Source of the DNA: an uncultured Actinomycetota bacterium
GTDB lineage: Bacteria > Actinomycetota > Actinomycetes > Actinomycetales > Dermatophilaceae
Assembly (NCBI GenBank): GCA_963728395.1
Contig: CAVSJJ010000008.1
Location: 422,227-486,226, forward strand
Direction of reading: 5' to 3'
Length of the DNA: 64,000 nt
This document shows, one piece after another, positions 10,993 to 32,374 of this stretch. Position numbers and translations under genes: made by a program. The notes beneath the pieces are model-generated. The model had not been told where the DNA came from. It made no database searches and saw only the letters and a list, made by a program, of their open reading frames with translations. Position 1 is the first letter of the stretch. Each line of letters begins with the position of its first letter.

Positions 10993-13596
10993 TCAGCCGG
11001 AGGAGGGGAGCAGGGTGAGCGTGTCCTTGGCGCCCTCGTCGACGGCGGATCGGGTGAAGGGCCACGGGTACTGCTCGCCCTTGACCCAGGCATCGATCTG
11101 GTCGGCATAGTGCGCGCTCATCGGGTGCCCGCTCGCCCCGGTCTGGTTGATCCAGGTCGAGGCGTCGAGGTGGGAGAGGTCGACGACCATCCGCATCGAC
11201 GGTGCCCAGTTGACGGAGTAGTCCTTGCTCGCGTTCCACCCGTTGGCGTCGACGATCGAGGAGCCGCCGGGCATCTCGTAGCCGCCCTTGTTGAAGATCC
11301 AGTGCAGCAGCGCGCCCTGGGGTCCGGTCAGGTCGGCGCCGCCGAGGACGGCATGGCGCAGGGTCAGCTGGTGCAGCTTGCCCCACTGCCAGTCGGTCGG
11401 GTCCTTCCCCAGCTCTTTCGTCAGCTCGAGCCTCGCGGCGACGAGGGCCTGGCGGATGATCTCGTCCTTGCCCTCGGTCACGTCGGCGGTCTGCTTGTTG
11501 TCCCACCACGGGCTCTCCGGGGTGTCCAGGAGGGTGATGACCGCCTGCATCCACCGGTCGCCCCCGTTGGCCTGGAGGTCGGCCGGCAGCTCGTCGTCGA
11601 AGAGGAGCCGAAGCAGGTTGGACCACACGGCGTTGTAGTAGGCCGCCGCCGCCGAGCTGCGGTTGTCACCCGCAGGGTTGGCGTAGTTCCAGCCCCGCAG
11701 CAGGTTCTGGGCCTCGCGGGTGAACTCCGCGTCGCCACCGGTGTCGTCGTTGGTGATCCGCACCGACAGGAAGGCCTTGACGAGGGTCTGCGCCGCGAGG
11801 TTGCGGGTGTCCATCTGGATCGACGCCATGTCGGCGGGGGTGACCTTGTCCAGCGCCTGGACCCGCTCCCGGATCCGGGCGGACCGGAACCCGTAGTCCC
11901 ACTCCGTCGTGAGGAACGGCGAGCGGGTGTCGGTGACGGCCTGGTTGGCGGTGACGATGAAGCCCTCGGGCGGGTCGTACGTCCACGGCATCTGGTCGAA
12001 GGGTACGAAGCCGCGCCAGTCATAGCTGGAGTCCCACCCCGGTGCCGGCCAGTACCCGGGCGGGGTGTCCGGGATGCCGGGCCTGCGGATCGGCACCTCG
12101 CCCGGCGCCTGGTAGCCGATGTGCCCGTCGACGTCGGCATAGACGAGGTTCTGGGCGGGCACCGCGAACTGACGCGCCGCCGCCCGGAAGTCTGCGAAGT
12201 TCTGCGCCGTGTTGAGGGCGAAGATCGCGTCGGCCGTCGAGGTCGGCTTCAGCCCGGTCCAGGCCAGCGATACCGCGTATGCCGTCCCGCGCTCCTGCTT
12301 GTCGGCCAGCGGCGGGCTCGTCCCGGCCTCGGCGAAGGCGGTGATGACGTCGGAGAGCACCGGCCCGTGGACGGTGCTGCGGACCGTGATGGTCTGGGGG
12401 TCGCCGCCGCAGACCGTGATCGTCTCCTGGCGGGTCTGCAGCGGGAGCCATCGGCGGTCGCGCTGGTAGGTGTCGCCGACGATCTTCTCGAGGTAGAGGT
12501 CGGTGACATCCGGGCCGAGGTTGGTGAAACCCCAGGCGATCGACTGGTTGTGCCCGATGATGACGCCGGGCACGCCGCTGAACGAGAAGCCGGCGACGTC
12601 GAGCGGGCAGGACGAGGACACCGTCGTGCAGTGCAGGCCGACCTGGTACCAGATGCCCGGGATCCCGACGCCGAGGTGCGGGTCGTTGGCGAGCAGCGGC
12701 TTGCCCGTCGTCGTCTTCGACCCGGCGACGACCCACGAGTTCGAGCCGATGCCGTCGCCGCGCCCGACGAGCGAGGGGATCTGCTCGAGGGCGGCCGACA
12801 CCGCGGCATACGCGCGCTCGGCGCCCGCCGAGCGCAAGGAGGACGGCACCGAGGCCGCCGAACCGGTCGGGGGCCTGGCGCCGGGCGTCCAGTCCTGTCT
12901 CGAGAGGATCGGCGGGTGCTCGTCGTAGGGGTAGGGCGGGTAGATCTGGTTGATCTGGGCGACCGACATCCGGGCGGCCAACCGGGCCCGGGCCAGCTCG
13001 TCGGCGTAGTCGCCCTTGAGGTCCCAGGCCATGGCGATGAGCCAGCCGAGGGAGTCCACCGGCGTCCAGTCCTCGATCGAGTACTCCGGGAGCGCCACGC
13101 CGAGGGCGGTGTACTCCAGCGACACGTCCGACGGTGAGCGACCGTCGAGGTAGGCGTTGACCCCGTCGGCGTAGGCCTGGAGGTACTGCCGGGTCTCGGG
13201 CTTGAGGGTGGGCAGCTCCTCCTCGGCGATCTGGCGCCATCCCATCGCCCTGATGACCTTGTCGGTGTCGACCCCGTCCTTGCCGACGAGCTCGGCGAGC
13301 CGTCCGGAGGTGATGTGGCGACGCAGGTCCATCTCGAAGAAGCGGTCCTGCGCGTGCACGTAGCCCTCGGCCTTGGCGATGTCGGAGACGGTGTCCCCGT
13401 AGATCTGGGGCACTCCCCGGTCGTCGCGGATCACGGTGACCCGCCCGGCCAGCGCGGGAACGGTGACTTCGCCGCTCGTCGTGGGGAAGGGCTTGCGGAT
13501 GGTGATGGCCAGCCCGACCACGACGACGAGGGCGAGGACGACAACCAGGGCGAGGACGCCCATACCGGTTCGACGGATGAGCTTCGCGCGGGTCAC
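10993..13596 (-). CDS. penicillin acylase family protein (Ntn hydrolase; penicillin/AHL acylase-like)
   Basis: 867 aa with an N-terminal TM/signal anchor and VHAQDRFFEMDLRRH. The nucleophile context is GIGSNSWVVAGSKTTTGKPLLANDPHL. Confidence 0.85.
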   Translation of the reverse strand: MTRAKLIRRTGMGVLALVVVLALVVVVGLAITIRKPFPTTSGEVTVPALAGRVTVIRDDRGVPQIYGDTVSDIAKAEGYVHAQDRFFEMDLRRHITSGRLAELVGKDGVDTDKVIRAMGWRQIAEEELPTLKPETRQYLQAYADGVNAYLDGRSPSDVSLEYTALGVALPEYSIEDWTPVDSLGWLIAMAWDLKGDYADELARARLAARMSVAQINQIYPPYPYDEHPPILSRQDWTPGARPPTGSAASVPSSLRSAGAERAYAAVSAALEQIPSLVGRGDGIGSNSWVVAGSKTTTGKPLLANDPHLGVGIPGIWYQVGLHCTTVSSSCPLDVAGFSFSGVPGVIIGHNQSIAWGFTNLGPDVTDLYLEKIVGDTYQRDRRWLPLQTRQETITVCGGDPQTITVRSTVHGPVLSDVITAFAEAGTSPPLADKQERGTAYAVSLAWTGLKPTSTADAIFALNTAQNFADFRAAARQFAVPAQNLVYADVDGHIGYQAPGEVPIRRPGIPDTPPGYWPAPGWDSSYDWRGFVPFDQMPWTYDPPEGFIVTANQAVTDTRSPFLTTEWDYGFRSARIRERVQALDKVTPADMASIQMDTRNLAAQTLVKAFLSVRITNDDTGGDAEFTREAQNLLRGWNYANPAGDNRSSAAAAYYNAVWSNLLRLLFDDELPADLQANGGDRWMQAVITLLDTPESPWWDNKQTADVTEGKDEIIRQALVAARLELTKELGKDPTDWQWGKLHQLTLRHAVLGGADLTGPQGALLHWIFNKGGYEMPGGSSIVDANGWNASKDYSVNWAPSMRMVVDLSHLDASTWINQTGASGHPMSAHYADQIDAWVKGEQYPWPFTRSAVDEGAKDTLTLLPSSG

Positions 13597-13646
13597 CCTG
13601 CGAGACTAGGACACGATTCGACGAGACACGGAGGGACGGGCCGGAG

Positions 13647-15209
13647 ATGACCTCGGGTTGGGCCCTCGCCGACTCGGCAGCGGATGCCTTCACGGTCGAC
13701 GACCTCGCCGTCGTCCTGCTCATCGCGGCTGCGGTCCTCGTCGTGTCCGTCGCAGCCGTGCGGGTATCCGTCCGCTCGGGCCTGCCGTCGTTGCTCATCT
13801 ACCTCGGCATCGGGCTCGCCCTCGGAGAGGGCGGCATCGGCATCCAGTTCGACTCGACGAACCTCACCCGGGTCCTCGGGTACGCCGCCCTCGTCGTCAT
13901 CCTCATCGAGGGTGGCATCACGACCCGCTGGGACGGCATCCGCCGCTCCGTCGCGCCGGCCGCGCTACTAGCGACGGTCGGCGTCGGCGTGTCGGTCGGC
14001 GTCGTCGCCCTCGTCGCCCGGTACGTCCTCGACCTGCCGTGGTCGGTCGCCGTCCTCGTCGGCGGCGTCCTCGCCTCGACCGACGCCGCCGCGGTGTTCT
14101 CCGTGCTGCGCCGGGTGCCGCTGCCGCGGTCGGTCACCGGGATGCTCGAGGCCGAGTCCGGCTTCAACGACGCCCCCGTCGTCCTCCTCGTCGTCGCCCT
14201 CTCCGAGCAGGCGGTCGCGGGCGGGGAGGCCGAGTCGTGGTGGCTGCTCGCGCTCATGGCGGTCCTCGAGCTCCTCGGCGGCGTCGCCATCGGGCTCGCC
14301 ATCGGCTATGCGGGCGGCTGGCTCATGCGCCGGGTGGCGAGCGGCTCCTCGACGTTGTTCGCCATCGGGGTCGTGTCCGTCGCGATCCTCGCGTATGCCG
14401 TGGCCGACCTCGCGCACACCTCCGGCTTCATCGCGACCTATCTCGCGGCCCTCCTGCTGGGCAACCTCGGGCTACCGCACCGGCCGGCCGTGCTCGGGTT
14501 CGCGGCGGCGCTCGGCTGGCTCGCCCAGATCGGGCTGTTCGTCCTCCTCGGCCTGCTCGCCTCGCCAGGCGGCTTCCCCGGCCAGCTGGGCGCGGCCCTC
14601 GTCATCGGTCTCGTGCTTCTCTTCGTCGCCCGCCCGCTCTCGGTCGCCGTCGCGTGCACCCCGTTCCGAATGCCATGGCGGACCCAGGCCTTCCTCTCCT
14701 GGGCCGGGCTGCGGGGGGCGGTGCCGGTCGTCGTCGCGACGATTCCCATCACGGCCGGGATGCCCGGGGTCGACTGGCTGCTCGACCTCGTCTTCGACCT
14801 CGTCGTCGTCTTCACCGCGATCCAGGCACCGACCCTGCCGTGGGTGGCTCGACGGCTCGGGCTGGACCAGTCGCATCTCTCGCTCGACCTCGCTGTCGAG
14901 GTGACCCCCCTGGAGGAGCTCGGCGCGCAGATCCTCGAGGTCGATGTCGGGTCCACGTCGCGGATCGCCGGCGTCCAGGTCTTCGAGCTGCGCCTGCCCG
15001 CGGGGGCGCAGGTCACCCTCGTCGTGCGGGACGGCGAGGGGTTCGTCCCCAAGGAGTCGACGGCGCTGCGGCACGGGGACCGGCTGCTCGTCGTGACGAC
15101 TTCGGCCGCGCGAGCCGCCGCCGAGCGCCGGCTCTACGCGGTCAGCCGCGGCGGGCGGCTGGCGCGGTGGTCCCCCGGAGCCGACGGCGGCACGCCCCCT
15201 CAGGGCTGA
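13647..15209 (+). CDS. K+/H+ antiporter, CPA1 family (NhaP2/CvrA-like) with C-terminal TrkA-C domain
   Basis: 520 aa with about 12 TM segments and MLEAESGFNDAPVVLLV. The C-terminal RCK_C-like region reads VQVFELRLPAGAQVTLVVRDGEGFVPKESTALRHGDRLLVV. Confidence 0.8.
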   Translation: MTSGWALADSAADAFTVDDLAVVLLIAAAVLVVSVAAVRVSVRSGLPSLLIYLGIGLALGEGGIGIQFDSTNLTRVLGYAALVVILIEGGITTRWDGIRRSVAPAALLATVGVGVSVGVVALVARYVLDLPWSVAVLVGGVLASTDAAAVFSVLRRVPLPRSVTGMLEAESGFNDAPVVLLVVALSEQAVAGGEAESWWLLALMAVLELLGGVAIGLAIGYAGGWLMRRVASGSSTLFAIGVVSVAILAYAVADLAHTSGFIATYLAALLLGNLGLPHRPAVLGFAAALGWLAQIGLFVLLGLLASPGGFPGQLGAALVIGLVLLFVARPLSVAVACTPFRMPWRTQAFLSWAGLRGAVPVVVATIPITAGMPGVDWLLDLVFDLVVVFTAIQAPTLPWVARRLGLDQSHLSLDLAVEVTPLEELGAQILEVDVGSTSRIAGVQVFELRLPAGAQVTLVVRDGEGFVPKESTALRHGDRLLVVTTSAARAAAERRLYAVSRGGRLARWSPGADGGTPPQG

Positions 15210-15290
15210 GCGGGCGGCATACCCCCTCAGGTACACCGCCCGCTCGGCGGGTGGGCGGGCCCCTCAGCACCGCCCGGGTCGACGCGCCCC

Positions 15291-16955
15291 TCAGCGCGCC
15301 GCCGCATAGTGGGCCGAGATCCGCTCGGAGGTCAGGGCCGTCGGGTAGATCGCCGTCTCGCTGAGGTCGGCGGTCAAACCGCCGGTACCGCCGCGGACGA
15401 GACCGGAGACGTCGTCGGTGCCGGCCCGCCAGTAGCCGCTGGTGGTGCCGAAGACGAAGGCCAACGGAGTCGAGGCCTCTTCGCGGCCATCGACGTAGAT
15501 CGAGAGGCTGAATGTCTGGTAGGCCACCGCGAGGTGGTGCCACCGACCGTCGACGATGTTCGTCGAGGAGACGAGGCTGGTCAGGCCGAAGAATACGGGC
15601 ACCGCGGCGTGGCCGTCGGAGTCGACGTAGAGGACGCGGGAGCGGTTCGTGCTGTCACCCTGCGCAGGCGTCTTGTCGCCGAAACCGATGATCTGCGCGG
15701 GGGCGGTGCCCGTGGAGCGGAACCATGTCTCGATGGTGAAGTTGCCGTCCTCGCTCGTCCGGGACTTCTGGGTCAGCGCGCCCGTGGCGTTGAACCGGGT
15801 GGCGTCCGAACACGTCATCGCGCCGCCGAGTGGCATCGTCACCGAGCCGGTGTAGGAGCCGGAGGAGTCGGCCTGGGTGCTGCCGTGCGGCCAGCGGATG
15901 GTCGGGTTGTCGGCGAGCACGGCCGCGGCGTACGCCGTCGGGCCGCACATCTTCTTCGCCGTCGAGAAGGACGCCGCCATCGCCGTCGAGGAGGTGAACA
16001 GCGCGCCGGTCATCCCGACCGAGAGGCCGAGGACGGCGGCGGCGGAGACGGCGATCGTCGAGAGGCGGGCCCGCGGACGCAGCTCGCGCACCGGGCGCGC
16101 AGCCGCGTGCCGGGCGAGGTGCTGGCCGTCCGCGTGACCGGGATTGTGGCGGACGGGGTGGCGCACCGGATGGCCGGCGGGGTGCGGACGGGCCGGACGG
16201 AGCGTGCGGGGCGGCCGGTCGGCCGACGGGCGGGTCGGGACAACCGGCGGGGTGGCACCGCCGGGGCCGCCGTCGTCGACGTCGTCGTCGTTCCCGCGCT
16301 CGCCGTCGTGGTGGTCGTGGTCGGACGCGCCCTCGTCCTCGGTCGCCGCCGTGACGACGGCCGGCTCGAGCTCGAGGGGCTCCGCGGCGGACTCGACGCC
16401 GGCTCCCGTCCTCCCCCGGAGGATGACCTTGACGGCAACCGAGGCGTTGTAGCCGAGGACGAGCAGGAGCGGGAGGCCGAGAGTCAGCAGGCGCCAGGAG
16501 GCGTCGGTGTAGAGGATGACGTAGCGGCCGGCGCCCGGAATGACGGTGCCGGCGATGCCGACGACGCTGCTCGCGGGGGTGTAGTTGGGGTCCGGGACCG
16601 CGTTGGCGTCACCCTTGGTCTGGATGAACCGGCCCTCGGGCCGGTCGATGATCGCGTGGATCCGGTGGGTGGTCAGCTGCTCCTCGCCGGGGGCGTGGAA
16701 GGTGACGATCTGTCCGACCCGCAGGTCCTCCGGCTTCGGCGCCGGACGGACGATGACGACGTCACCGGCGACGAACTGAGGGGTCATCGATCCCGAGAGG
16801 ACGACGGCGACCTGCCGGCCGGTCAGCCGGAGGGCGGCCGCCCCGCCGACGGCGAGGAGCGCGCTGGCCGTCGCGACGACGAGCAGGGCCGTCATGAGGC
16901 CGCGAACGAGCCGTGAGAGCCAGTGGCGCCGGGAGCCGGGGCGAGAGGAGGCCAT
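15291..16955 (-). CDS. SipW-type (archaeal/ER-type) signal peptidase I fused in frame to a LamG/concanavalin-like domain protein
   Basis: aa 1-180: TM, then SGSMTP (Ser), TTHRI (His), TKGDAN, then a second TM. aa 181-297: Asp/His/Pro-rich linker (SDHDHHDGERGNDDDVDDG, HPVRHPVRH). aa 298-330: hydrophobic segment ending MTGALFTSSTAMA (SipW-type signal peptide). aa 331-554: lectin-like domain (DGRWHHLAVAYQTFSLSIYVDG). No stop codon between the parts. Confidence 0.7.
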   Translation of the reverse strand: MASSRPGSRRHWLSRLVRGLMTALLVVATASALLAVGGAAALRLTGRQVAVVLSGSMTPQFVAGDVVIVRPAPKPEDLRVGQIVTFHAPGEEQLTTHRIHAIIDRPEGRFIQTKGDANAVPDPNYTPASSVVGIAGTVIPGAGRYVILYTDASWRLLTLGLPLLLVLGYNASVAVKVILRGRTGAGVESAAEPLELEPAVVTAATEDEGASDHDHHDGERGNDDDVDDGGPGGATPPVVPTRPSADRPPRTLRPARPHPAGHPVRHPVRHNPGHADGQHLARHAAARPVRELRPRARLSTIAVSAAAVLGLSVGMTGALFTSSTAMAASFSTAKKMCGPTAYAAAVLADNPTIRWPHGSTQADSSGSYTGSVTMPLGGAMTCSDATRFNATGALTQKSRTSEDGNFTIETWFRSTGTAPAQIIGFGDKTPAQGDSTNRSRVLYVDSDGHAAVPVFFGLTSLVSSTNIVDGRWHHLAVAYQTFSLSIYVDGREEASTPLAFVFGTTSGYWRAGTDDVSGLVRGGTGGLTADLSETAIYPTALTSERISAHYAAAR

Positions 16956-17072
16956 GGGACGTCCTTCGGGAGGGGAGGTGGTGAGCGAGGTGGTCCTGCT
17001 CGGGGCCCGTCGAGGGGGACGGGATGGGTGGCCGCCCGGGCGCCGTACTGCCGGCGCCCGGGCGGCGGTGGA

Positions 17073-17693
17073 TCACGGGTTGTTGGCGATCTGCTCGGAG
17101 TCGAACGTCATCGTGACGTTCGCGGTCTTGCCCTGGAAGGCGTTGCCCGTCGCCAGCGGGAGGGAGACCTGCATGCAGAGGTTCTCGCTCGCGCCGGCGG
17201 AGAGGGTGCGGTCGCCGGCCTGGGATCCGCTGGTGTTGTCGCCGATGACCTTCGTGCCGGCCGAGCTGGCGAGCGGGCCGGTGTAGATCTCGGTGCCGCT
17301 CGAGCCGAAGCCGGCGGTGGTGCAGGTCGTGACGCCGGCCTTGACCGTGTAGGCGAGCTGGCCGGCGAGGGTGTCGCTGGCGGCGTCGTCGGTCTTGATG
17401 GACATCGCGTACCGCTCGGCGAGGGTGCCCGCGTTCTGGACGGTGATGCCGGCGGTGAGGGTGTCACCGGGCGCCATGTTCGTCATGGTCAGCGGGACGG
17501 ACGCCGCGCTGGCGTTGATGTCGACCGTGCCGGTGACGAACGACGTACCGGAGACGGTGGCCGAGTCGGAGAACAGGGCCCCGGTCGTGACGGCGGTGAG
17601 GCCGACGAGCGAGACGATGGCGAGGAGCAGGGTGAGCAGGGCGCTGCGGCGGGACGTGCGGTTCTCGGCGCGGGCGGCGCGGGTTTCGGACAT
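17073..17693 (-). CDS. TasA/camelysin-family secreted protein with SipW-type signal peptide
   Basis: ATG with aggag RBS. The signal reads SRRSALLTLLLAIVSLVGLTAVTTGALFSDSATVSGTSFVTGTVDINAS, followed by a beta-rich mature part. Lies immediately upstream of the signal peptidase gene. Confidence 0.75.
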   Translation of the reverse strand: MSETRAARAENRTSRRSALLTLLLAIVSLVGLTAVTTGALFSDSATVSGTSFVTGTVDINASAASVPLTMTNMAPGDTLTAGITVQNAGTLAERYAMSIKTDDAASDTLAGQLAYTVKAGVTTCTTAGFGSSGTEIYTGPLASSAGTKVIGDNTSGSQAGDRTLSAGASENLCMQVSLPLATGNAFQGKTANVTMTFDSEQIANNP

Positions 17694-18331
17694 GGTGTGG
17701 ATCTCCTGGGTCGAGGGGCGGGTGGTGCGGATGTCGGTGGGAACTCGGTTGTCGGCCGGGCCGGACTTTGCAATCACCTGGTGAAGATTTACGTTCTCTT
17801 TACCTTTCGTTGATCAAGGTAATGGCGAAACGAATACCGCGTTACGGGTTCTGCGAAGGTGTGGCGGCCTCGGCGCGGCTCGAGACCGGCCGGGCGAGCC
17901 CTCCGGGGCCGTCCTGGAGGCCGGGCCGCACGCAGCCAATCGCGGTGTCGCACAATGGATTCCCCGAGTTGACGGCGACTTCCCATGCCGCGCCAACGCG
18001 GCGCCGGGAGCCCTGGGAGACGGCCTCGCGGCCGGCTGAGGACGACCCCTTGGGCTGAGGACCCCCTGGCCGAACGGATGACCCCGGGCCCGGGCGATCG
18101 TCCGGGGGGCCCCGGCCATCGGGAGGACCGTCGGCGCAGGTCAGCGGTCCTGCGAGGGCTCAGCACCGGTCGCCGGCGGCCGCGTCGGGGCGGCGGCTGC
18201 ACCCGTTCCTTGACCCGCGGCATACCTTCGGGCATATCCGGGCCCCGAGGCGCGTTCTCGATACCGGCGAGGGTATGCCGCCGCCGATCCCGTATTCTTT
18301 CGCTCGACCATCCGGACCAGAGGAGACCGCC

Positions 18332-18664
18332 GTGCCCACGTACGCGTATGCGTGTACCGAGTGCGACCACCGTTTCGAGGTCGTCCAGTCCTTCACCGAC
18401 GACTCGCTGAGCGTCTGCCCGGAGTGTGAGGGGCGGCTGCGCAAGGTGTTCAACGCCGTGGGCGTCGTGTTCAAGGGCGGCGGCTTCTATCGGACCGACT
18501 CGCGGGGGTCGAGCGGCTCGACTTCGGCCCCGGCAGCCGCCTCGTCCGACGCGGCTGCGACGCGCACCTCGTCGCAGCCGGCCTCGAGTGGGTCCGGCTC
18601 GAGTGGGTCCGGCTCGTCCACAGCCATGGCCGACGCGGGTGCGTCGTCCACAGCCGCGAGCTGA
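18332..18664 (+). CDS. FmdB-family zinc-ribbon protein with Ser-rich tail
   Basis: GTG with aggag RBS. VPTYAYACTECDHRFEVVQSFTDDSLSVCPECEGRLRKVF carries the CxxC...CxxC pattern. Counterpart of the Rv0991c position. Confidence 0.8.
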   Translation: MPTYAYACTECDHRFEVVQSFTDDSLSVCPECEGRLRKVFNAVGVVFKGGGFYRTDSRGSSGSTSAPAAASSDAAATRTSSQPASSGSGSSGSGSSTAMADAGASSTAAS

Positions 18665-18703
18665 CCCCCGCCGCGCCCTCGCCGGCGCCCTAGCGTCGCC
18701 TGG

Positions 18704-19417
18704 GTGTCCTTCCTCCCCCGCTCTTCCGGCGTCCCCGACCGCTCCGCGCACACGGCGCCGGACGGGCGCCGACTCGCCCTCGGCCGGAGCCGCCGCGCGC
18801 GCTGGCGTCGTCGCGTGCTGCGCAGGGTCGCCTCGATCCTGCTCGCGACGGCCGGCGTCGGGCTGACCGTCCTGGCCGCCGAGCAGCGATCCGCTCCCCC
18901 ACCGGCCCGCGTCGTCGTCGCGGCGGGTGACCTGTCCGGCGGGACCCGACTCGGCGTCGAGGACGTCGAGACCACCCACGTGCCTGCCGCCGCGGCCCCA
19001 CCCGGCGCGGTGAGCGCCGCGGAGGCGGTGGGGCGCCGGCTCGTCGGGCCGATCGCGGCCGGCGAGGTGCTGACCGCGACGCGCCTGCGCGCCGACGACA
19101 CGCGCGATGACGGCCGGGTCGCGGTCCACCTCCTCGCCGAGGATGCCGTCGCCCTGGACCTGGTGGGCGTCGGGTCGGTCGTCACGGTCTATCCCGCCGG
19201 CGGTGGCGCGGCCCTCACCCGCGATGGCGTCGTCGTTGCGGTCGACGCCGCCTCGACGGCCGGCTCGGCATCCGACCTCGACCCGTGGGCGGAGACCGGC
19301 GCGCCGCCGGGGCGGGGGCTCGTCGTGGCCGTCGCCCCGGTGGCGGTCGACCGCCTCTTCGCGGGGCAGCGGCCCCTGGAGGGCCCGCCCGTCGTGTCGG
19401 TCGTGCCGTCGGCGTAG
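18704..19417 (+). CDS. SAF domain-containing membrane-anchored protein (CpaB-like N-terminus)
   Basis: TM anchor (VASILLATAGVGLTVLAA), then SAF-like VVVAAGDLSGGTRLGVEDVE...PIAAGEVLTATRL. Lies between fmdB and mscL, as in mycobacteria. Confidence 0.6.
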   Translation: MSFLPRSSGVPDRSAHTAPDGRRLALGRSRRARWRRRVLRRVASILLATAGVGLTVLAAEQRSAPPPARVVVAAGDLSGGTRLGVEDVETTHVPAAAAPPGAVSAAEAVGRRLVGPIAAGEVLTATRLRADDTRDDGRVAVHLLAEDAVALDLVGVGSVVTVYPAGGGAALTRDGVVVAVDAASTAGSASDLDPWAETGAPPGRGLVVAVAPVAVDRLFAGQRPLEGPPVVSVVPSA

Positions 19418-19503
19418 TCACCCCACCGACACGCGCCGGTCCGCCGGGCGCCCTCGCCGGCCCGTCACGGGTACGTTTGAGCCTCCCGGATCCAGGAGGG
19501 TTC

Positions 19504-19869
19504 ATGAAGGGCTTCAAGGACTTCGTCCTGCGCGGCAACCTCGTCGAGCTGGCCGTCGCGTTCATCATCGCCGGCGCGTTCGGCGCCGTCGTCACGAGCT
19601 TCACGACGATGCTCATGGACATCCTCGGCAAGATCGGCGGCCAGCCGAACTTCTCGTCGTGGAGGCCCGGTGAGGTGCGGGTCGGGGTCTTCCTCACCGC
19701 ACTCGTCTCGTTCGTCATCCTCGCCGTCGTTCTGTACTTCCTCGTCGTCAAGCCGTACGAGGCCGCCAAGGCTCGGTTCGACAAGCCGGTCGAGGTCGAG
19801 GAGGCCGTCGACGAGAGCCTCGAGCTGCTCAAGCAGATCCGCGACGCCATCCGGGCGCGCGGGATCTGA
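19504..19869 (+). CDS. mscL: large-conductance mechanosensitive channel MscL
   Basis: MKGFKDFVLRGNLVELAVAFIIAGAFGAVVTSF... followed by a second TM and a C-terminal helix. RBS ggaggg. Confidence 0.92.
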   Translation: MKGFKDFVLRGNLVELAVAFIIAGAFGAVVTSFTTMLMDILGKIGGQPNFSSWRPGEVRVGVFLTALVSFVILAVVLYFLVVKPYEAAKARFDKPVEVEEAVDESLELLKQIRDAIRARGI

Positions 19870-19991
19870 CCCCCGCCCCTGTGTCCGGGTTCCTGGTCGT
19901 CAGGGCGACCGGAAACCCGGACGCAACGGCGAGCGGGCGGTGACGGGAGCGGCGGCGCTCACGCCAGGCGGCGCTCACCCCAGGGCGGCAC

Positions 19992-22900
19992 TCACTCCCA
20001 GTGCGGCGGACGCTGCTCGCGCAGCCAGCGGTCCCGGGCGTCGCGGTCCTCGCGCTCGCCCCACCCCGCGTCGGTGTCGTCGCGGGTCTGGTCGGGCTCG
20101 GAGCGCCGCCTGAGGATCCGCCGCCCCTTCGGCGTCTTGGGCGTCTTCGGCGGCGCCGGGGGCTCGGCCTGGCCCGTCGGGGCGTCGTCGCCCGAACGAT
20201 CGGGCGCCACACCGGGATGGTCGGGGGCCGCGCCGGGCTCTCCCCGGCCAGCCTCCGGCTCGGCGGCATCGCCGTCCGCGGCCGTCCCGGGGCCCGCGGT
20301 GTCCGTCTCCTCCGGCTCGGGCACCGGCTCCTCCTCGTGCTCCGGGCCACGGCCCTCCGAGGCCGCGACGATCCGGGCGATGTCGGGTGCCGGGTCCCGG
20401 AAGATGTCGCTGCTCCACACCCGCAGGTGGCGCCAGCCGAGCCGGGCCAGCTGCTCCCCACGGAGCCGGTCGCGGTCCCGGGCGCTGCGCTGGGCGGCAT
20501 ACCCCAGGCCGTCGGACTCGACGGCGAGCAGGAGCCGTCCCGCCTCGTAGCGGTGCTCGACCGCGAGGTCGACCGGGTCGGCTGAGGAGCCGTAGTCCTC
20601 GTGCACGGTCAGTCCGTGGCTGCGCAGGCCGCGGGCCAGCTCGGCCATGACGACGGAGTGGTGGCCCGGGGGCGCGCCCTCGCTCTCGGGCGAGGGGCCG
20701 GGAGCGGCGCCGCCCTCGGCGGCATACCGGAGGAATTCGCGCAGCAGCCGGGCACCACGGGCCTTGAGCTTGCCCGGGTCGAGGTCGTCGGCGACCAGCG
20801 ATGAGACAACGGTCATCCGGCGACGGGCCCGGGTCACCGCGACGTTGAGCCGACGCTCGCCGCCCTCGAGGTTGAGCGGCCCGAACCGGTGCAGGACCCG
20901 CCCGTGCGGCGTCTTGCCGTACCCGATCGTGAGAAGGACCGCGTCGCGCTCGTCGCCCTGGACCCGCTCGAGGTTCTTGACGAAGAACGGCTCGTCGCCG
21001 GTGCCGGCGAAGAAGGCCTGGACCTCGGCCGGTTCGTCGGAGAGGGCGTCCCGCATGGCGTCCTCGACGCGGGTCGCATGCTGGATCCCGAGGGCGATGA
21101 CGCCGAGGGACTCCTCGGGCCGGGTCCGAGCATGGTCGAGGACGAGCCGGACGACCCGCTCGACCTCGGCCGCGGTCGACTCGACCGCGCCCGTTCCGTC
21201 ATGGAGGACGCCGGTGCCCTCGACGAGCTCGTGGGTGAGGACCGGCCCGGTGCCGGTGCCGGGGAAGGTGACGAGCGACCCGTCGTAGATGTGGGCGTTG
21301 GCGAAGGCGATGAGCCGCTCGTCGAGCGAGCGGTAGTGCCAGGTGAGCCGCCGGCTGGGCAGCAGGGCCGCGAGCACGTCGAGGACCGACTCAACGCCCT
21401 CGGTGGGCAGGTCCTCCGCGGCGTCCGCGCCATCGGTCACCGTCGTGAAGAACGTCGTCGGGGGCAGCTGACGGGCGTCGCCGGCCACGACGACCTGATG
21501 TGCGCGGGAGATCGCCGACACCGCCTCCGCGGGCGGGATCTGCGAGGCCTCGTCGAAGACGACGACGTCGAACCACATCCCCGGGGGGAGGACCGAGGCG
21601 ACGACGAGCGGGCTCATCACCCAGCACGGCCGGGCCGACGTCGCAAGCCGGCCCGCCACCGGCAGGAGGTCACGCAGGCTCCTGTGCCGGCGTGACTTCG
21701 CGGCCTCGGTCCGGATGAGGCTCTCCTGGGCCGGGTCGTCCTCGACGGCTCGGCGCACGTGGTCGGCGACGGCCTCGCGGACCCGGGCGGCGTTGTCGCG
21801 GACGAGATCCGCGTCGGCGGCGGCGAAGTCGGCCGCGATCCGACGCAGCCGGTCACCCTGGTGACCCGCGAGCCGCTGGTCGCGGATCATGAGGTCTTCG
21901 AAGACCGAGGACCACCAGACGAGGTCGAGCTCGGCGGCGACGTCGTCGGCATCGACCCCGCGGCCGGCGAGGTCGGCCACGACCGCCCCGAAGCCGGCCG
22001 CCTCGAGATCGTCGAGGGTCCCGATGACGGTGGGGACGACGGCGAGGCGGTCCGGCCGGGCGTCGAGCTCGGCGAGTCGGGTGCGCAGCGTGTCGAGGTC
22101 GGCGTCCAGGAGCGGCTCGGCGCCGGGCCGGGCGGCCAGCCGCTCGTCGAGCCAGCGCAGGTCGGTGATGACGTCGTCGTATGCCGCGTGCGCGAGGTCG
22201 AGATCGACCGGGAGTTCGGGGCGGCCCCCGGCGCCGGCCATCTCGCGCCACGTGCTGCGCTGGGCGCTCGCCTCGATCAGGGCCGCGTGCAGGTCCTCCG
22301 GTGGCGGCCCCGGCCGCAGGAGGCGCCGGGCCTGGCGGACGAGCCGTCGGCGTTCGAACCAGCCGAACTCGATGCCGTTCGCCTTGCGGTAGGCCCGCTC
22401 ACCCGTCGCCGCGACGAGGTCGTCGAGCGGCACGTCGAACACCTCGGGACGGAAGATCTCGAGGGTGTCTCGGACCTTGGCGACGGTCTCGAGTGTCTGG
22501 CCCCACTCGCGCAGCGCGGTGGCGCGCGGCAGGTCGACCCCGGCGAACACCTCGTCGAGGGTCCGGGCGAGCGTGTCGACGCCGCCCCCCGCGAGGCGCG
22601 CCGTCACCTCACGAGCGGCCATCGCCTCCTCCGGCGTCCGGATCCGGGCTCCGAACCACGGGTCGCCGCTCGGCGCCCCCGGGTGCACGCCCGAGGGGTC
22701 GGTGATCTCGTCCCCGGCCCAGGCCCCGAGGGACGCCGCGGCCGCGAGCCGCCCACCGAGCTCGGCCACCTCCCCCCGGGAGTGCCTCGCCAGGGCGTCG
22801 CCGCGCAGCCGGACCCGACATCGCGGTGGGTGTGCTCGCGCGGCGAGGGCGCTGATGGCCTCCTGGGCCTGGTAGGCCGAGACGCCCCACGGCATCCGGA

Positions 22901-24242
22901 CCTCGTGCATGGCCTCGACATGGCCGATGAGAGCGGCTCGGGCTGCCCGCACCGTGGCCACGGTCTCGTCCGGCGGCGGCCGGTCCGAGGCGGGCGCCGG
23001 GCGGACGGTGGCGACGTCGAGCCCCGACGCGAGCCGCTGGGCGATCCGGCGCCGGGGCTGGGCGCCGTCGTGGAGGTCGAGGACGAGCCCGCCGAGGCCC
23101 ACCCGCTCGAGCCGACCGACGACGGCGTCGATCGCCGCCCGCTTCTCGGCGACGAAGAGGACCCGCTTGCCGTCCGCTGCGAGGCCCGCGACGAGGTTGG
23201 CGATCGTCTGCGACTTCCCGGTGCCGGGCGGCCCGTGGATGACGAGGTGGCTGCCCTCGCGGACGGCATCGATGGCCTCCTGCTGCGAGGAGTCGGCGTC
23301 GAGGACCACCCGGTCCCGCTCGGGGTCGCGGTCGAGGGGAGCTCTGGTGTCGGGGAGCTGGGAGCGGACCGCACGCATCGCGTCGGGGTCGCCGGCGAGC
23401 GCGGCGACGACGTCGTGGTTGGCCAGGTCGACACCCTGGGTCGACAGATCGGCGACCATCGGCAGCTTGGCGTAGGAGAAGGTCCCGATGACGATCCGCG
23501 GGGCGATCGAGAAGTCGGGGACGTTCGCGCACGCCCGGCTCACCGCGGCATACACGGGGAAGGGGTCGAAGGAGTCGTTGGCCGACGCGAGCTCCTCGAG
23601 GGCGTCGGCGTCGAGGTCGATGCCCTGCTCGGTCGAGAGGTAGTGGACGAGGACGGGGTTGAGCTCGATGTCGTCGCTGAGGTCAAGGACGTAGTCGTGC
23701 TCGGCGGCCCCGGTGGGACGCAACGTGATCGGACGCAGCAGGACCGGCGCGGCCGGCACCCGGGTCACGGTGGGGCCGAGGCTCCACGTCGCCATGCCGA
23801 GGGCGAGGAAGCCGGTGGTGATGCCGCGCTCCTCCTTCAGCTCGCGGCTCTTCGCGGCGATGGCGCGAGCGCGACGCAGGGCCTCGTCGTGGGCCCCGGC
23901 CTCACGGACCAGCGTCGAGAGGGTCGTCTCCCGGCCGGCCATGAACCGGGCGAGCCCGGCGGGGTGCGACGTCGTGAGGTCGAGGGTGCCGGTGGGCAGG
24001 TCGCGGTACCAGAGGAGGGTGTTGCGACCGCCGAGGTCGACGAGGTGCCGGGTCCAGGCGGACACGGCCGCACCGACCCGGTCGGCCCGTGGGTCCGCCG
24101 CCGGGTCGCCGGCGTCGGGACCCTCTGGGTCCCGGGGGGGACGCCCCTGCACCGGCCCCGCCGGGCGTTCGGGGTCCTCGGGCGCGCCGGGACCGGCACT
24201 CGGGCTGGGGTCCCGGCTCGGGTCGGGGCCGGCCGTGCTCAC
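19992..24242 (-). CDS. DUF4011-type Upf1-like SF1 helicase with C-terminal DUF559/Vsr-like endonuclease fold (1416 aa)
   Basis: N-terminal LVDLGGRNTLLWYRDL. Helicase motifs VIHGPPGTGKSQTI, VVVFDEASQ, VVAGDARQLPPT, LTWHYRS, ERVQGDERD, LNVAVTRAR. C-terminal VDLAVE...LAVESDG...RDRLRGEQLARLGWRHLRVWS. Disordered acidic/Pro tail. Confidence 0.85.
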   Translation of the reverse strand: MSTAGPDPSRDPSPSAGPGAPEDPERPAGPVQGRPPRDPEGPDAGDPAADPRADRVGAAVSAWTRHLVDLGGRNTLLWYRDLPTGTLDLTTSHPAGLARFMAGRETTLSTLVREAGAHDEALRRARAIAAKSRELKEERGITTGFLALGMATWSLGPTVTRVPAAPVLLRPITLRPTGAAEHDYVLDLSDDIELNPVLVHYLSTEQGIDLDADALEELASANDSFDPFPVYAAVSRACANVPDFSIAPRIVIGTFSYAKLPMVADLSTQGVDLANHDVVAALAGDPDAMRAVRSQLPDTRAPLDRDPERDRVVLDADSSQQEAIDAVREGSHLVIHGPPGTGKSQTIANLVAGLAADGKRVLFVAEKRAAIDAVVGRLERVGLGGLVLDLHDGAQPRRRIAQRLASGLDVATVRPAPASDRPPPDETVATVRAARAALIGHVEAMHEVRMPWGVSAYQAQEAISALAARAHPPRCRVRLRGDALARHSRGEVAELGGRLAAAASLGAWAGDEITDPSGVHPGAPSGDPWFGARIRTPEEAMAAREVTARLAGGGVDTLARTLDEVFAGVDLPRATALREWGQTLETVAKVRDTLEIFRPEVFDVPLDDLVAATGERAYRKANGIEFGWFERRRLVRQARRLLRPGPPPEDLHAALIEASAQRSTWREMAGAGGRPELPVDLDLAHAAYDDVITDLRWLDERLAARPGAEPLLDADLDTLRTRLAELDARPDRLAVVPTVIGTLDDLEAAGFGAVVADLAGRGVDADDVAAELDLVWWSSVFEDLMIRDQRLAGHQGDRLRRIAADFAAADADLVRDNAARVREAVADHVRRAVEDDPAQESLIRTEAAKSRRHRSLRDLLPVAGRLATSARPCWVMSPLVVASVLPPGMWFDVVVFDEASQIPPAEAVSAISRAHQVVVAGDARQLPPTTFFTTVTDGADAAEDLPTEGVESVLDVLAALLPSRRLTWHYRSLDERLIAFANAHIYDGSLVTFPGTGTGPVLTHELVEGTGVLHDGTGAVESTAAEVERVVRLVLDHARTRPEESLGVIALGIQHATRVEDAMRDALSDEPAEVQAFFAGTGDEPFFVKNLERVQGDERDAVLLTIGYGKTPHGRVLHRFGPLNLEGGERRLNVAVTRARRRMTVVSSLVADDLDPGKLKARGARLLREFLRYAAEGGAAPGPSPESEGAPPGHHSVVMAELARGLRSHGLTVHEDYGSSADPVDLAVEHRYEAGRLLLAVESDGLGYAAQRSARDRDRLRGEQLARLGWRHLRVWSSDIFRDPAPDIARIVAASEGRGPEHEEEPVPEPEETDTAGPGTAADGDAAEPEAGRGEPGAAPDHPGVAPDRSGDDAPTGQAEPPAPPKTPKTPKGRRILRRRSEPDQTRDDTDAGWGEREDRDARDRWLREQRPPHWE

Positions 24243-29006: not shown

Positions 29007-30104
29007 ATGTCGAGTCCTGCGCCCTGTCTGATTCCGTCTGCTGGGGCGGTGCCGGATCGGTTGGGTGATCCGCTGCTGGATGACTTCTTGGAGTTCCTGG
29101 CCGTTCGGTGCCGGCCGAACTCGGTGTTGGCGGCCAGGTTCGACCTGAAGGTGTTCTTCGAGGTGGTGGCCAAGCCGGTCGAGCAGGTGGGCGCGGCGGA
29201 CGTGCTGGGGTTCATCACCGCGCAGCGCACCGGCGCCCGGTGCCTGCCCGAGCCCGGTGTGCGGGTGTTGCCGACGGACGCTGTGGGTGTCACGTCGCGC
29301 ACGATCCGTCGCCGGCTGTCCACGGTCAGCGGGTTGTACGCGTTCTTGGCGGTGCGTGGGGACGTGCCGGCCAACCCGGTCCCGAGGGGGTTGCCGACCC
29401 GCCGGGAGCTGGGCCGGCCCGGCCAGGGTGTGCCGTTGGTGCGGGCCCCGCGCCGGACGTTGCCGCGGATCCTGACCCCGGCCGAGGTCGACGCGTTGGC
29501 CGGTGCGTTGCGCACCCACCGGGACCGGGCGATGGTCGCCGCGATGGTGCTGGGTGGGCTGCGCCGCTGCGAGGTCCTGGGCCTTCGCCTGGGTGATGTG
29601 CGGGCGGGTGAGCGGCGGTTGTTCATCAACGAGGGCAAGGGCGGTGCGCAGCGGCTGGTGCCGATCTCGCCGCGGTTCTTCGAGCACCTTGCGGCCTACC
29701 TGGACGTGGAGCGACCTGCCGACGCCGATACCGACGCGGTGTTCCTGGTCCTGAAACGTCCCCGCCGGGGCCGGCCACTGACGGCGTACGGGGTCGACCA
29801 GGTGATGGACGGCGCCCGGGCCCGGGCCGGGCTGGCCCACGCCACCTGCCATCAGCTGCGGCACACCTGCCTAACCCGGCTTCGGGAGGCCGGGATGCCG
29901 TTGGAGGCGGTGCAAGCCCAGGCCGTGCACGCCAGCATCGAGTCGACCAGGATCTACTTGCACCTGGCCGATGACTGGCTGGCCTCTCAGTACCGTCGCG
30001 CCGCCGAGGTCATCGACGCCCAGGTCTTCGCCGGCACCCCCACCGGGAGCCCACCGACCGCGACGGATCGGGCGCCGATCCCAGGCTTTCGGAGGCTGCG
30101 GTGA
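29007..30104 (+). CDS. tyrosine recombinase (XerC/D-like), first of pair
   Basis: RBS gaggagg. N-terminal SAM-like LDDFLEFLAVRCRPNSVLAARFDLKVFF. Catalytic LGGLRRCEVLGLRLGDV...HQLRHTCLTRLREAGMPLEAVQAQAVHASIESTRIYLH. Confidence 0.85.
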   Translation: MSSPAPCLIPSAGAVPDRLGDPLLDDFLEFLAVRCRPNSVLAARFDLKVFFEVVAKPVEQVGAADVLGFITAQRTGARCLPEPGVRVLPTDAVGVTSRTIRRRLSTVSGLYAFLAVRGDVPANPVPRGLPTRRELGRPGQGVPLVRAPRRTLPRILTPAEVDALAGALRTHRDRAMVAAMVLGGLRRCEVLGLRLGDVRAGERRLFINEGKGGAQRLVPISPRFFEHLAAYLDVERPADADTDAVFLVLKRPRRGRPLTAYGVDQVMDGARARAGLAHATCHQLRHTCLTRLREAGMPLEAVQAQAVHASIESTRIYLHLADDWLASQYRRAAEVIDAQVFAGTPTGSPPTATDRAPIPGFRRLR

Positions 30105-31348
30105 GCGGGCCGCTGCTGCTGCCCACCTGGGCCCAGCTCGACACCACCCACCCGCAGGTGGTGGCAACGATGCGCGCCTACCTGGACCAGGTCGCGTGCG
30201 TGCTGCGCCCGGGCAGCGTCGGTGGCGCCGACCTCGCGCTGCGCTCGTTGGCGGCCTACCTGGCCGACCAACATCCTGACCTGCACCGGGTCCGTGACGT
30301 CGGGCGCGTCCACATCGAAGGGTTCAAGCCGTGGCTGGCGGCCCGCCCGGGACAGAACCGCACCCGGCTGACCCCGGCCACCATCGCGCACCGCCTCGGC
30401 ACGCTACGGGTGTTCTTCCTGCGGATCGACGAATGGGGTTGGGACGACGCACCGCCGCGGGTGCCGATGTTCCTCGGTGACGTCCCCAAGCAGCACCACG
30501 CCCTGCCCAAGGCCTTGGACGACGCCACCGCCGCGAAGCTGCTGCGCGCCGCCCAGGCCGACAAGCGGATGCTCGTCGGGGTCACCGTGGAGTTCCTCCT
30601 ACGCACCGGGCTACGGGTCGGGGAGTACACGGCCCTGACCGCCGACGCCGTGGTCCTGATCGGTGACACCCACTGGCTGCACGTACCGGTCGGCAAGCTC
30701 CACGAAGACCGCTACCTGCCACTGCACCCGCGCATCGTGGAGCTGATCGACACCTACCGGGCCGCGCACGTCCCGCCCGGGCACCCGCTGCTGCTCCCAC
30801 GCGAGAACGGCAAACCGATGGACCGGCACGGTGTCACCCGCTACATCAACAAGGCCGGCGCCGCGGCCGGGCTGGGCCACATCCACCCCCACCAGCTGCG
30901 GCACACCCTGGCCACCCAGGCCATCAACCGCGGCATGAGCATCGAGGCGATCGCCGCGATGCTGGGCCACAAGTCGCTGGACATGACCTTGGTGTACGCC
31001 AAGATGACCAACCGCACCGTGGCCGAGGAGTACTTCACCGTCGCCGCCAAGGTCGACGCCCTGTACGCCTCACCCTCGCAGCTACCCGCCGACGACCTCG
31101 GACCCAACATGGCCCGCCTGAACCGTGAGCACCACCGCATGCTCGGCAACGGCTACTGCGCCCGACCCAAGGTCATGGACTGCCAGTTCGAGAACATCTG
31201 CGAGTCGTGCACGTTCTTCCAAACCAGCATCGAGTTCCGACCCACCCTCCTCGCCCAACGCCAAGACGCCTGCAACAAGGGCCAAGTCAGACGAGCCGAG
31301 ATCTTCGACCAGCTCATCACCGGCCTCGAGAACACCGAAGCCTCTTGA
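30101..31348 (+). CDS. tyrosine recombinase, second of pair, with Cys-rich C-terminal extension
   Basis: The GTG overlaps the previous stop (GTGA). Catalytic TGLRVGEYTAL...HQLRHTLATQAINRGMSIEAIAAMLGHKSLDMTLVYAK. C-terminal NGYCARPKVMDCQFENICESCTFFQT. Confidence 0.85.
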   Translation: MSGPLLLPTWAQLDTTHPQVVATMRAYLDQVACVLRPGSVGGADLALRSLAAYLADQHPDLHRVRDVGRVHIEGFKPWLAARPGQNRTRLTPATIAHRLGTLRVFFLRIDEWGWDDAPPRVPMFLGDVPKQHHALPKALDDATAAKLLRAAQADKRMLVGVTVEFLLRTGLRVGEYTALTADAVVLIGDTHWLHVPVGKLHEDRYLPLHPRIVELIDTYRAAHVPPGHPLLLPRENGKPMDRHGVTRYINKAGAAAGLGHIHPHQLRHTLATQAINRGMSIEAIAAMLGHKSLDMTLVYAKMTNRTVAEEYFTVAAKVDALYASPSQLPADDLGPNMARLNREHHRMLGNGYCARPKVMDCQFENICESCTFFQTSIEFRPTLLAQRQDACNKGQVRRAEIFDQLITGLENTEAS

Positions 31349-31408
31349 CACCGATCACCCACATAATGCCGAATTGAGGACGTCTCGCGACCCCGCGTGT
31401 TGAGGGGG

Positions 31409-32316: not shown

Positions 32317-32374
32317 GCCGGGAGCGTCTCACGGAACGCCATCTGCCGCCGATCGTGCCGATGAGCGCGGCCGA

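Follow-up and report, generated by a model that had tools for sequence, protein, structure and literature searches.

We analyzed a 64,000-nt stretch of contig CAVSJJ010000008.1 (hereafter the window), which comes from a soil actinobacterium with high GC content (72 % GC), and identified a two-gene minus-strand unit in which a TasA-like gene (17073-17693) is followed by a gene (15291-16955) that joins a SipW-type signal peptidase to its own probable substrate. A loop and an internal SipW-type signal peptide join the peptidase covalently to a LamG domain. A first-pass annotation had proposed this architecture, and matches to TIGR02228 and PF13385 together with three hydrophobic segments bore it out. 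We regard it as a conserved enzyme-substrate fusion within TasA-type fiber systems that is so far undescribed, since our full-text literature searches returned no paper combining SipW with LamG and none on a signal peptidase fused to its substrate. On balance, we favor the reading that the unit is a minimal two-gene TasA-type fiber module, whose second gene would supply the peptidase and its own initiator or tip substrate in one chain.

Architecture of the fusion protein and its TasA-like partner

Residues 43-169 of the fusion protein scored 83.2 bits against TIGR02228 (sigpep_I_arch; cutoff 51.85), and by its sequence this domain is an endoplasmic reticulum (ER)/archaeal-type (SipW/SEC11-like) signal peptidase I of MEROPS family S26B. 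The nearest solved structures, found with the family profile among PDB sequences, were human SEC11A and SEC11C (E ~7e-18). Against the Bacillus SipW equivalog NF046067 the score was 76.2 bits, below the cutoff of 190, indicating that the domain is of the same subfamily type but not an ortholog of Bacillus SipW. The catalytic motifs were S54-G-S56-M, T-H97-R-I and GD116AN...D122, with His and not Lys as the general base. S54, G55, S56, M57, R98, D116 and D122 were invariant in a 12-sequence alignment and H97 was nearly so, in agreement with the earlier assignment of the catalytic Ser to SGSM and His to THRI. The motifs were also found in L031, a distant variant with two LamG domains. With the Ser/His/Asp set conserved, the TIGR02228 score above cutoff and the SEC11 match, the peptidase looks active.

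Hydropathy analysis detected three hydrophobic segments, at residues ~20-43, ~157-178 and ~298-315, the first two of which correspond to the two transmembrane (TM) segments annotated initially. The N-terminus carries 5 K/R and no D/E, and a basic KVILRGR stretch lies just after TM2. Between TM2 and the third hydrophobic core there are ~120 aa, which had been described as an acidic, His-rich linker. The acidity held for the first half (3 K/R, 16 D/E), whereas the second half was basic and His-rich (13 K/R, 3 D/E, 7 H). Since the hydropathy and the charge pattern follow the positive-inside rule, the predicted topology is N-terminus inside, peptidase outside, loop inside and LamG outside, as the first-pass annotation also had it. 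The spacing between the peptidase and LamG domains varied from 45 to 169 aa across the family. An AlphaFold2 (AF2) model of the protein had a mean predicted local distance difference test (pLDDT) score of 67.6, with values of 82-95 for LamG (340-554) and mostly 64-88 for the peptidase blocks, falling to 55 near the Ser56 motif. Residues 184-338 were disordered in this model except for a helix at 295-313.

The C-terminal domain was assigned from the match of residues 398-547 to PF13385 (Laminin_G_3), which scored 62.1 bits with a cutoff of 27.6. Foldseek retrieved lectin-like LamG folds, with matches to pentraxin, BoNT Hc and arabinanase domain 4 (E ~1e-8); binding of a carbohydrate or another ligand is putative. 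A nearly invariant residue, C337 (window 15947), directly follows the strand segment described below. We noted that C337 and the Cys of a TCSD motif ~44 residues further on co-occur in most homologs, while the most divergent homolog, P0012, is without the first Cys. A disulfide probably links the two residues and pins down the beginning of the domain; such a bond would be consistent with an extracytoplasmic location of LamG.

The upstream gene starts at ATG 17693, preceded by an AGGAGA Shine-Dalgarno sequence, and encodes a 206-aa product. The protein scored 45.6 bits against PF12389 (TasA/camelysin; cutoff 22.5), and the proposed position of the fusion gene downstream of a TasA-like gene was thereby supported. 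Its score against the Bacillus TasA equivalog NF046066 was 26 bits, far below the cutoff of 450; it is therefore a member of the PF12389 family and not a TasA ortholog.

The third hydrophobic segment of the fusion protein resembles the signal peptide of this partner. It consists of an n-region (RPVRELRPRAR), an h-region (LSTIAVSAAAVLGLSVGM) and a c-region (T316-G317-A318) followed by LF, and MTGALFTSSTAMAASFST (fusion residues 315-332) mirrors TTGALFSDSATVSGTSFVT of the upstream PF12389 protein. When the six-frame translation of the 64-kb window was searched with the pattern [ST]GA[LVIMF][FY], only two matches were found, one in the internal segment and the other in the TasA-like N-terminus (...SRRSALLTLLLAIVSLVGLTAVTTGA LF...). 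BLASTP of the fusion protein against the TasA-like protein gave the shared region as the best local match (E=0.002 for the window pair, 4e-5 for that of the distant locus L003). A hidden Markov model (HMM) built solely from nine TasA-like N-termini detected the internal segment with E=6.7e-5 among 2115 open reading frames (ORFs). These searches agreed with the earlier remark that the internal segment mirrors the TasA-like signal peptide.

We then compared the ends of the third hydrophobic segment in 33 distinct fusions and found the motif [TASV]-x-A/x-[FYW] (the slash marks the cut) in 31 of them. The -3 residue was T in 17, A in 10, S in 3 and V in 3, and the +2 residue was F in 27, Y in 5 and W in 1. 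By sequence, the motif is the -3/-1 rule combined with the aromatic P2' residue typical of SipW substrates. The B. subtilis sites, TWA/AF in TasA and TSA/AF in TapA, share this feature. LepB cuts inefficiently where P2' is aromatic, and this residue turns the TasA site into a poor substrate for LepB and a substrate for SipW (PMC10269814). The internal signal block was the most conserved part of the gene relative to the ortholog at L001, with 37/40 codons identical, and the cleavage-type motif is under selection. The likely cleavage site is predicted to be A318/L319 (window 16002/16001), because the homology with TasA, TapA and the 31 of 33 fused relatives points to this bond. The cut had previously been placed after ...AMA (A325-M-A327), a position that this homology does not favor.

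The similarity between the fusion and the TasA-like protein runs ~18 residues beyond the signal peptide, into residues 319-336. The two strands were aligned in the window as LFSDSATVSGTSFVTGTVDI (TasA-like) with LFTSSTAMA-ASFSTAKKMC (fusion), and in L003 as FFTDTATAANNTFTTG (TasA-like) with VYAATATSSNNTFSTG (fusion). In the TasA-like protein, the segment LFSDSATVSGTSFVTGTVD occupies the same position as TasA residues 28-47 (donor strand, PMC9674648) and is conserved across nine TasA-like proteins. The B. subtilis fiber is built by a donor strand consisting of TasA residues 28-38, and TapA, which has a TasA-like N-terminus, nucleates TasA polymerization, for which TapA residues 44-57 suffice (PMC9674648, PMC10151520). 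The minor subunit TafC of the Haloarcula tafi has a laminin-G-like domain, was modeled at the tip and was proposed to provide the first donor strand (PMC11821415), and TafD is the dedicated signal peptidase of haloarchaeal tafi (PMC11821415, PMC12337348). The shared segment in the window covers the donor strand of TasA and TapA, and a TapA/TafC-like role is therefore indicated. Strand donation by residues 319-336 is proposed by this analogy, and the disorder of these residues in the AF2 monomer model is as expected for a free donor strand.

Continuity of the reading frame and occurrence of the gene pair

We confirmed that the fusion is real and that one reading frame runs throughout. The GC content at third codon positions (GC3) was 0.83-1.0 in one frame over the entire ORF, linker included. 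As the codon-level reference for the ORF we used L001, a 78 % identical ortholog from another sample. Every length difference between the window and L001 was a multiple of three, and among the codons for loop residues 241-296, in the basic half, 41 were the same, 9 differed synonymously and 6 non-synonymously, mostly through third-position changes. The synonymous-biased change and the length differences in threes indicated that the loop is translated in this frame, and the linker is, from these codons, under purifying selection in frame.

A word-indexed search identified 12 homologs of 463-569 aa (29-83 % identity), all with both domains. We also searched 1.84 billion cluster representatives exhaustively with an HMM, and the best 150 hits comprised at least 22 clusters (50 % identity) in which the fused architecture was complete. 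The fetched sequences included at least 39 fused proteins (446-962 aa, each with between one and three LamG domains), nearly all of them from uncultured Actinomycetota, and the TM2-loop-TM3 hairpin was kept in every fused relative. The fused sequences stem from independent assemblies, both Illumina and Nanopore, of JGI, Logan, ENA and NCBI. In the species-representative genomes, a scan bounded by seed patterns gave full-length fused matches in six metagenome-assembled genomes (MAGs), assigned to 'uncultured Actinomycetota' or Solirubrobacteraceae. The family clusters carried only the database names 'signal peptidase I' or 'hypothetical protein'.

The first-pass annotation had asked whether orthologous loci hold one ORF or two. 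We found a single ORF in the independent assemblies, and the sole exception was L006 (L006:5480-5789), the one locus of the fused family whose peptidase and LamG halves do not share a frame. One base inserted anywhere in the 310-nt linker stretch of L006 restored the ORF, and an extra G at a GGGG run (5565) gave the family-typical acidic D-rich loop repeat; the frameshift is most simply explained by the loss of 1 nt from a homopolymer in a long-read assembly. Gene callers had annotated the second half of L006 as a protein of its own, the 259-aa 'LamG precursor' P0121, whose start coincides with that of the internal signal peptide. Housekeeping genes split into 2-3 adjacent ORFs were also observed, at L001:12879-13710 (UDPGP) and at L002:12053-14059 and 16307-17192 (penicillin amidase and MoeA), which is consistent with indel errors in the L001 and L002 long-read MAG assemblies and with the caution about indels in the first-pass annotation.

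The out-of-frame halves of L006 and the split genes of L001 and L002 are what could be cited for an assembly artifact, in which an indel or a lost stop would have joined adjacent sipW and LamG genes. We consider such an artifact extremely improbable and rejected it for the window ORF, since the fusion recurs in those 39 or more proteins, some at ~30 % identity, from independent samples and assemblies, the frame is the same on both sides of the linker with GC3 high throughout, all indels relative to the ortholog are multiples of three, and a single base repairs L006, with the GGGG placement yielding the typical acidic linker repeat. Another reading, that the ORF yields two proteins, had been raised as an internal GTG from which the LamG precursor could be made separately; a start at GTG ~16090, or an equivalent, would give that precursor an ordinary signal peptide at its N-terminus and leave the fusion itself minor or irrelevant. 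An in-frame GTG (V289) does lie 9 codons ahead of the h-region, in some relatives, such as L006 (AMRRVST) and P0004 (ARRMVT), the h-region is closely preceded by an ATG, and the frameshifted L006 yielded P0121 as a gene-caller product. However, no Shine-Dalgarno sequence was found within 15 nt upstream of the GTG, no internal start codon was conserved family-wide, and no stop separated the two parts in any locus but L006. The loop is moreover kept in frame with synonymous-biased change, and the shortest loops (~12-20 aa) offer no room for a separate translation-initiation region. We therefore judged the internal start, which lacks a Shine-Dalgarno sequence and conservation, to be very unlikely.

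The TasA-like gene was found directly upstream of the fusion in 7 of the 8 loci examined, unrelated neighborhoods included (the window, L001, L002, L003, L008, L009 and L032). The gene directly 5' of the fusion matched PF12389 in six loci and was TasA-like without a Pfam match in one more. In the two-LamG variant L031, the gene ahead of the fusion looked TasA-like but had no Pfam match. L003 has the same gene pair in an unrelated genomic neighborhood, indicating that the pair moves as a unit. At L002:4631-9506 we observed a tandem duplicate, consisting of a TasA-like gene (202 aa), a fusion (497 aa), a divergent TasA-like gene (221 aa) and a second fusion (501 aa). The 221-aa copy had no Pfam match, and the two fusions differ in loop length and have near-identical LamG starts. 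In L008, another TasA-like gene (232 aa), more distantly related, and after it a standalone SipW-like peptidase occupy L008:2762-4134 on the minus strand, and these sit divergently upstream of the fusion (L008:4959-6353); fused and unfused systems thus coexist there side by side.

We also identified unfused LamG proteins (P0037, P0054 and P0116) in which the counterpart of the internal segment is a true signal peptide at the N-terminus; in P0037, a free multi-LamG protein, the site reads ...TTVGA/VFTGTRDNGSNSFTAAAAF. At L028:5384-7512, from the cultured actinomycete Dactylosporangium sp. CP192032, a TasA-like-looking secreted protein of 198 aa is followed by a two-LamG protein of 503 aa. The N-termini of the pair match in AAFSA-[ST]-GN-x-GN (STAAFSATSGNAGN versus AFAAFSAQTGNTGN). 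The 198-aa protein had no Pfam or NCBIfam support and only a weak match to a rodlin model (E=0.003), and no peptidase gene was found near the pair. This locus could serve as a tractable model of the unfused form. No SipW or TasA gene was found near the unfused LamG proteins P0165 and P0032, and a LamG HMM run on 18 standalone-SipW loci (L010-L027) detected no LamG gene. The unfused tasA-sipW-lamG order, which might be ancestral, was not found in the unfused LamG loci examined, because L028 alone had a TasA-like-looking neighbor, and that one is without Pfam or NCBIfam support.

The coordinates of the unit are listed in Table 1. The fusion gene begins 117 nt 3' of the TasA-like gene. A convergent Na+/H+ exchanger gene flanks the pair on the 3' side, and a 580-bp intergenic region and a divergent Zn-ribbon gene lie on the 5' side, which indicates that the unit consists of two genes. 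Scans of 14.5-19.5 kb for Rfam families, sigma-70 promoters and intrinsic terminators gave no match. The promoter role of the intergenic region is presumed only, since it holds no sigma-70 consensus and no Rfam match; it includes a low-GC stretch at ~17780-17870, with local GC per codon position down to 0.43-0.57. The neighborhood at 10993-24242 was syntenic in L001 and L002, in the order penicillin amidase, Na+/H+ exchanger, the module, FmdB-type Zn-ribbon, SAF-domain protein, MscL and a 1416-aa DUF4011/AAA_11/AAA_12 helicase. Elsewhere in the window, 30001-34000 and 36001-42000 had a GC of 0.65-0.70, compared with 0.72-0.75 in the rest, and may be a horizontally acquired island.

Table 1. 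Features of the TasA-like/fusion unit in the window
Feature	Position in window	Strand	Basis or remark
TasA/camelysin-like major subunit gene, 206 aa	17073..17693	-	PF12389
TasA-like signal peptide, residues 1-39			ends T-T-G-A39/L40-F
Putative N-terminal donor strand of mature TasA-like protein, LFSDSATVSGTSFVTGTVD	17520..17576	-	
Fusion gene, 554 aa (signal peptidase, loop, internal signal peptide, strand, LamG domain)	15291..16955	-	
TM1, predicted N-in signal anchor, residues ~20-43	16827..16898	-	Kyte-Doolittle peak 2.2; AF2 helix 7-45
Extracytoplasmic S26B catalytic domain (predicted location)	16488..16826	-	TIGR02228
Catalytic codon, Ser56	16788-16790	-	
Catalytic codon, His97	16665-16667	-	
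Catalytic codon, Asp116	16608-16610	-	
Catalytic codon, Asp122	16590-16592	-	
TM2, residues ~157-178, predicted to return the chain to the cytoplasm	16422..16487	-	hydropathy; AF2 helix 152-183
Predicted cytoplasmic loop, residues 179-286 (~108 aa), disordered	16098..16421	-	charge counts; AF2 pLDDT <50
Predicted internal SipW-type signal peptide / TM3	16002..16097	-	partner similarity; TasA-like N-terminus HMM; [TASV]-x-A/x-[FYW]
Donor-strand-like segment LFTSSTAMAASFSTAKKM, residues 319-336	15948..16001	-	aligns with mature TasA-like N-terminus
LamG/concanavalin-like lectin-fold domain, residues 337-554	15294..15947	-	PF13385
Intergenic region 5' of the unit, 580 bp, presumed promoter region	17694..18274	.	

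Proposed mechanism and competing explanations

In the mechanism that we propose, TM1 and TM2 would insert so that the catalytic domain lies outside the cell, as the topology predicts, and the disordered loop would remain cytoplasmic. The third hydrophobic segment would act as an internal signal peptide for export of LamG, and the peptidase domain would cleave its own chain at T-G-A318/L319-F, in cis or in trans. The same active site would also cleave the TasA-like precursor at T-G-A39/L40-F, signal-peptide removal by the fusion's peptidase domain being a prediction from the sequence. The 236-aa LamG fragment released in this manner would expose the strand LFTSSTAMAASFST at its N-terminus, a mimic of the TasA-like donor strand. 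The analogy with TapA and TafC suggests that this strand would enter the first TasA-like subunit and nucleate or cap the fiber, so that the LamG domain at one fiber end may be an adhesin or a wall-binding head. Polymerization of the TasA-like protein by N-terminal donor-strand exchange is a predicted property, and the donor-strand role of its N-terminal segment (Table 1) is likewise putative, both by analogy with TasA. The fusion would tie the output of the initiator one-to-one to the peptidase, at the place where fiber subunits mature.

Several observations weigh against this reading. The internal segment had no match to TIGR04088 (cognate_SipW; cutoff 19 bits), and even the TasA-like N-terminus reached only 12.4 bits; the case for a signal thus depends on how the segment resembles its cognate partner and on the residues at -3, -1 and P2'. 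The T-G-A-x-F site is degenerate in the distant members L008 and L009, which nevertheless keep ...N-x-F-[ST]-T...FC. In a comparison of the strands from 8 loci, cognate TasA-like/fusion pairs were no more alike than non-cognate pairs (permutation p=0.10), and only L003 was striking, so that specific co-evolution is not supported. The LamG fragment is without the pilin-like domain of TafC. Finally, the AF2 model had pLDDT <50 at the loop, TM3 and the strand and is uninformative on whether TM3 reaches the active site.

The main rival reading, which we consider unlikely, is that the fusion stays uncleaved, with the third segment as a permanent TM helix and LamG tethered beside the catalytic domain. 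LamG could then be an accessory module that recruits substrate or binds the cell wall, or could anchor the TasA-like fiber to the membrane via the strand segment. Such an arrangement would fit the documented extracellular accessory fusion of signal peptidase I with DUF5305 (bioRxiv 10.64898/2026.01.04.697558), the description of TapA as co-localizing with the membrane (PMC10151520) and the retention of the N-x-F-[ST]-T strand by L008 and L009 in spite of their degenerate cleavage motif. However, Ala at -1, a small residue at -3 and an aromatic residue at +2 are nearly universal at the end of TM3 and are hard to explain for an uncleaved helix, and homologous LamG proteins exist free and secreted with the same element at their N-terminus.

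If the chain is cleaved as we propose, a more far-reaching version can be formulated, which we hold tentatively and regard as somewhat unlikely. The fusion would be an assembly machine that primes itself, and the first known case of a signal peptidase I made as a precursor with its own substrate, in which one cis-cleavage per molecule would yield one LamG initiator. With one initiator per peptidase, beside the maturation site, the number and position of fibers would be set by the number of peptidases. Copies of the fusion that remain uncleaved could double as the membrane anchor of the fiber.

We observed a twin-arginine-like n-region in the TasA-like protein (S14-R15-R16-S17, window 17640-17650). 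A Tat (twin-arginine translocation) signal has an S/T-R-R-x-F-L-K motif and a moderately hydrophobic h-region. TasA-like N-termini contain SRRSALL or SRRNALL, and RKNVIL is also among such n-regions; they resemble RRNVL, the Tat motif of haloarchaeal TafE. In many fusions RR precedes the third helix; the internal segment of the window has R-A-R instead. These n-regions could indicate export by the Tat pathway or could be a mere Arg bias of a 72 % GC genome; Tat dependence is a possibility raised by the RR motifs, and Arg-rich n-regions are expected at such GC. Actinobacterial polytopic proteins, the Streptomyces Rieske protein for example, are said to be inserted jointly by Sec and Tat, as reportedly described by Keller et al. 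in 2012 and Tooke et al. in 2017. By analogy, the third helix might serve as an internal Tat signal, so that Sec (TM1-2) and Tat (TM3, with pre-folded LamG) would insert the fusion jointly. In the Rieske proteins, too, N-terminal TMs lead into a cytoplasmic loop, after which come an Arg-rich motif, a last TM of moderate hydrophobicity and a globular C-terminal domain that is exported. Unlike the cleavage predicted here, their last TM is uncleaved, and their exported domain carries a cofactor.

Comparison with known systems and meaning of the fusion

In function, the locus would match both tapA-sipW-tasA and tafA/C/D by analogy. As with the B. subtilis operon tapA-sipW-tasA, a dedicated ER/archaeal-type signal peptidase adjoins a PF12389 fiber subunit, the mature N-terminus of an accessory protein resembles the donor strand of the major subunit, and the cleavage sites share Ala at -1 and an aromatic P2' (TWA/AF and TSA/AF in Bacillus; TGA/LF here). 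The two systems differ in that the peptidase and the accessory protein of the window are one polypeptide joined via a cytoplasmic loop, that the order is tasA-like and then sipW::accessory, and that the accessory domain is LamG, whereas TapA has an Ig-like fold. The stop codon of tapA overlaps the start codon of sipW in Bacillus, and this has been taken to suggest that the two are functionally associated (PMC10151520). An NCBIfam scan of the whole fusion protein gave no TapA-family match at E<=1, and the resemblance of the strand after the predicted cut site to the mature N-terminus of TapA should be taken as a functional analogy only.

The haloarchaeal Tat-fimbriae, or tafi (TafA/TafE pilins, TafC, TafD; PMC11821415, PMC12337348), also combine a donor-strand fiber with a dedicated signal peptidase I, and their minor subunit TafC has a C-terminal laminin-G-like domain and a proposed place at the tip as supplier of the first donor strand. 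Arg-Arg n-regions occur in both systems (RRNVL in Natrinema TafE; SRRSALL/SRRNALL here). Unlike the fusion, TafC and TafD are encoded by separate genes, and TafC has an extra pilin-like N-terminal domain, whereas the AF2 model places none between the strand and LamG here. The archaeal cluster is also larger, with 7 genes that include the anchor TafF, the adapter TafE and TafG (DUF5305). The TafC model NF052521 (cutoff 410 bits) had no match in the window protein, and unfused relatives scored 32-40 bits against it, in the LamG part only. Judged by these sequence models, the LamG part is a member of neither the TapA nor the TafC family.

The SPase I-DUF5305 protein of Anaerolinea thermophila (E8MZY1; bioRxiv 10.64898/2026.01.04.697558) resembles the fusion as a fiber-associated signal peptidase I (SPase I) with extra membrane spans and an extracellular beta-rich domain. 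It is unlike the fusion in that DUF5305 is read as a subunit of the enzyme and not as its substrate, and neither an internal cleavable signal peptide nor a donor-strand mimic was described. B. subtilis SipW itself is said to be bifunctional, its C-terminal tail reportedly having, according to Terra et al. in J Bacteriol in 2012, a peptidase-independent role in surface biofilm formation. That tail is a precedent for a second function after the second TM, but it comprises ~20 residues and is cytoplasmic, whereas the extension here comprises 376 residues with an exported domain.

TasA-type fibers are a cross-domain solution to building a biofilm matrix, as seen in Bacillus TasA, archaeal Abp pili and Tafi; to our knowledge, they have not been studied experimentally in Actinomycetota. 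The unit described here would extend LamG-headed TasA-type fibers from haloarchaea to Actinomycetota. The covalent fusion of a peptidase to its presumed initiator or tip is a 'Rosetta-stone' argument for their joint physical action. It bears on how, without any chaperone-usher machine, the initiation of a fiber may be coupled to secretion and to removal of the signal peptide, and with two genes in ~2.4 kb the unit would be a very small system in which to address that coupling.

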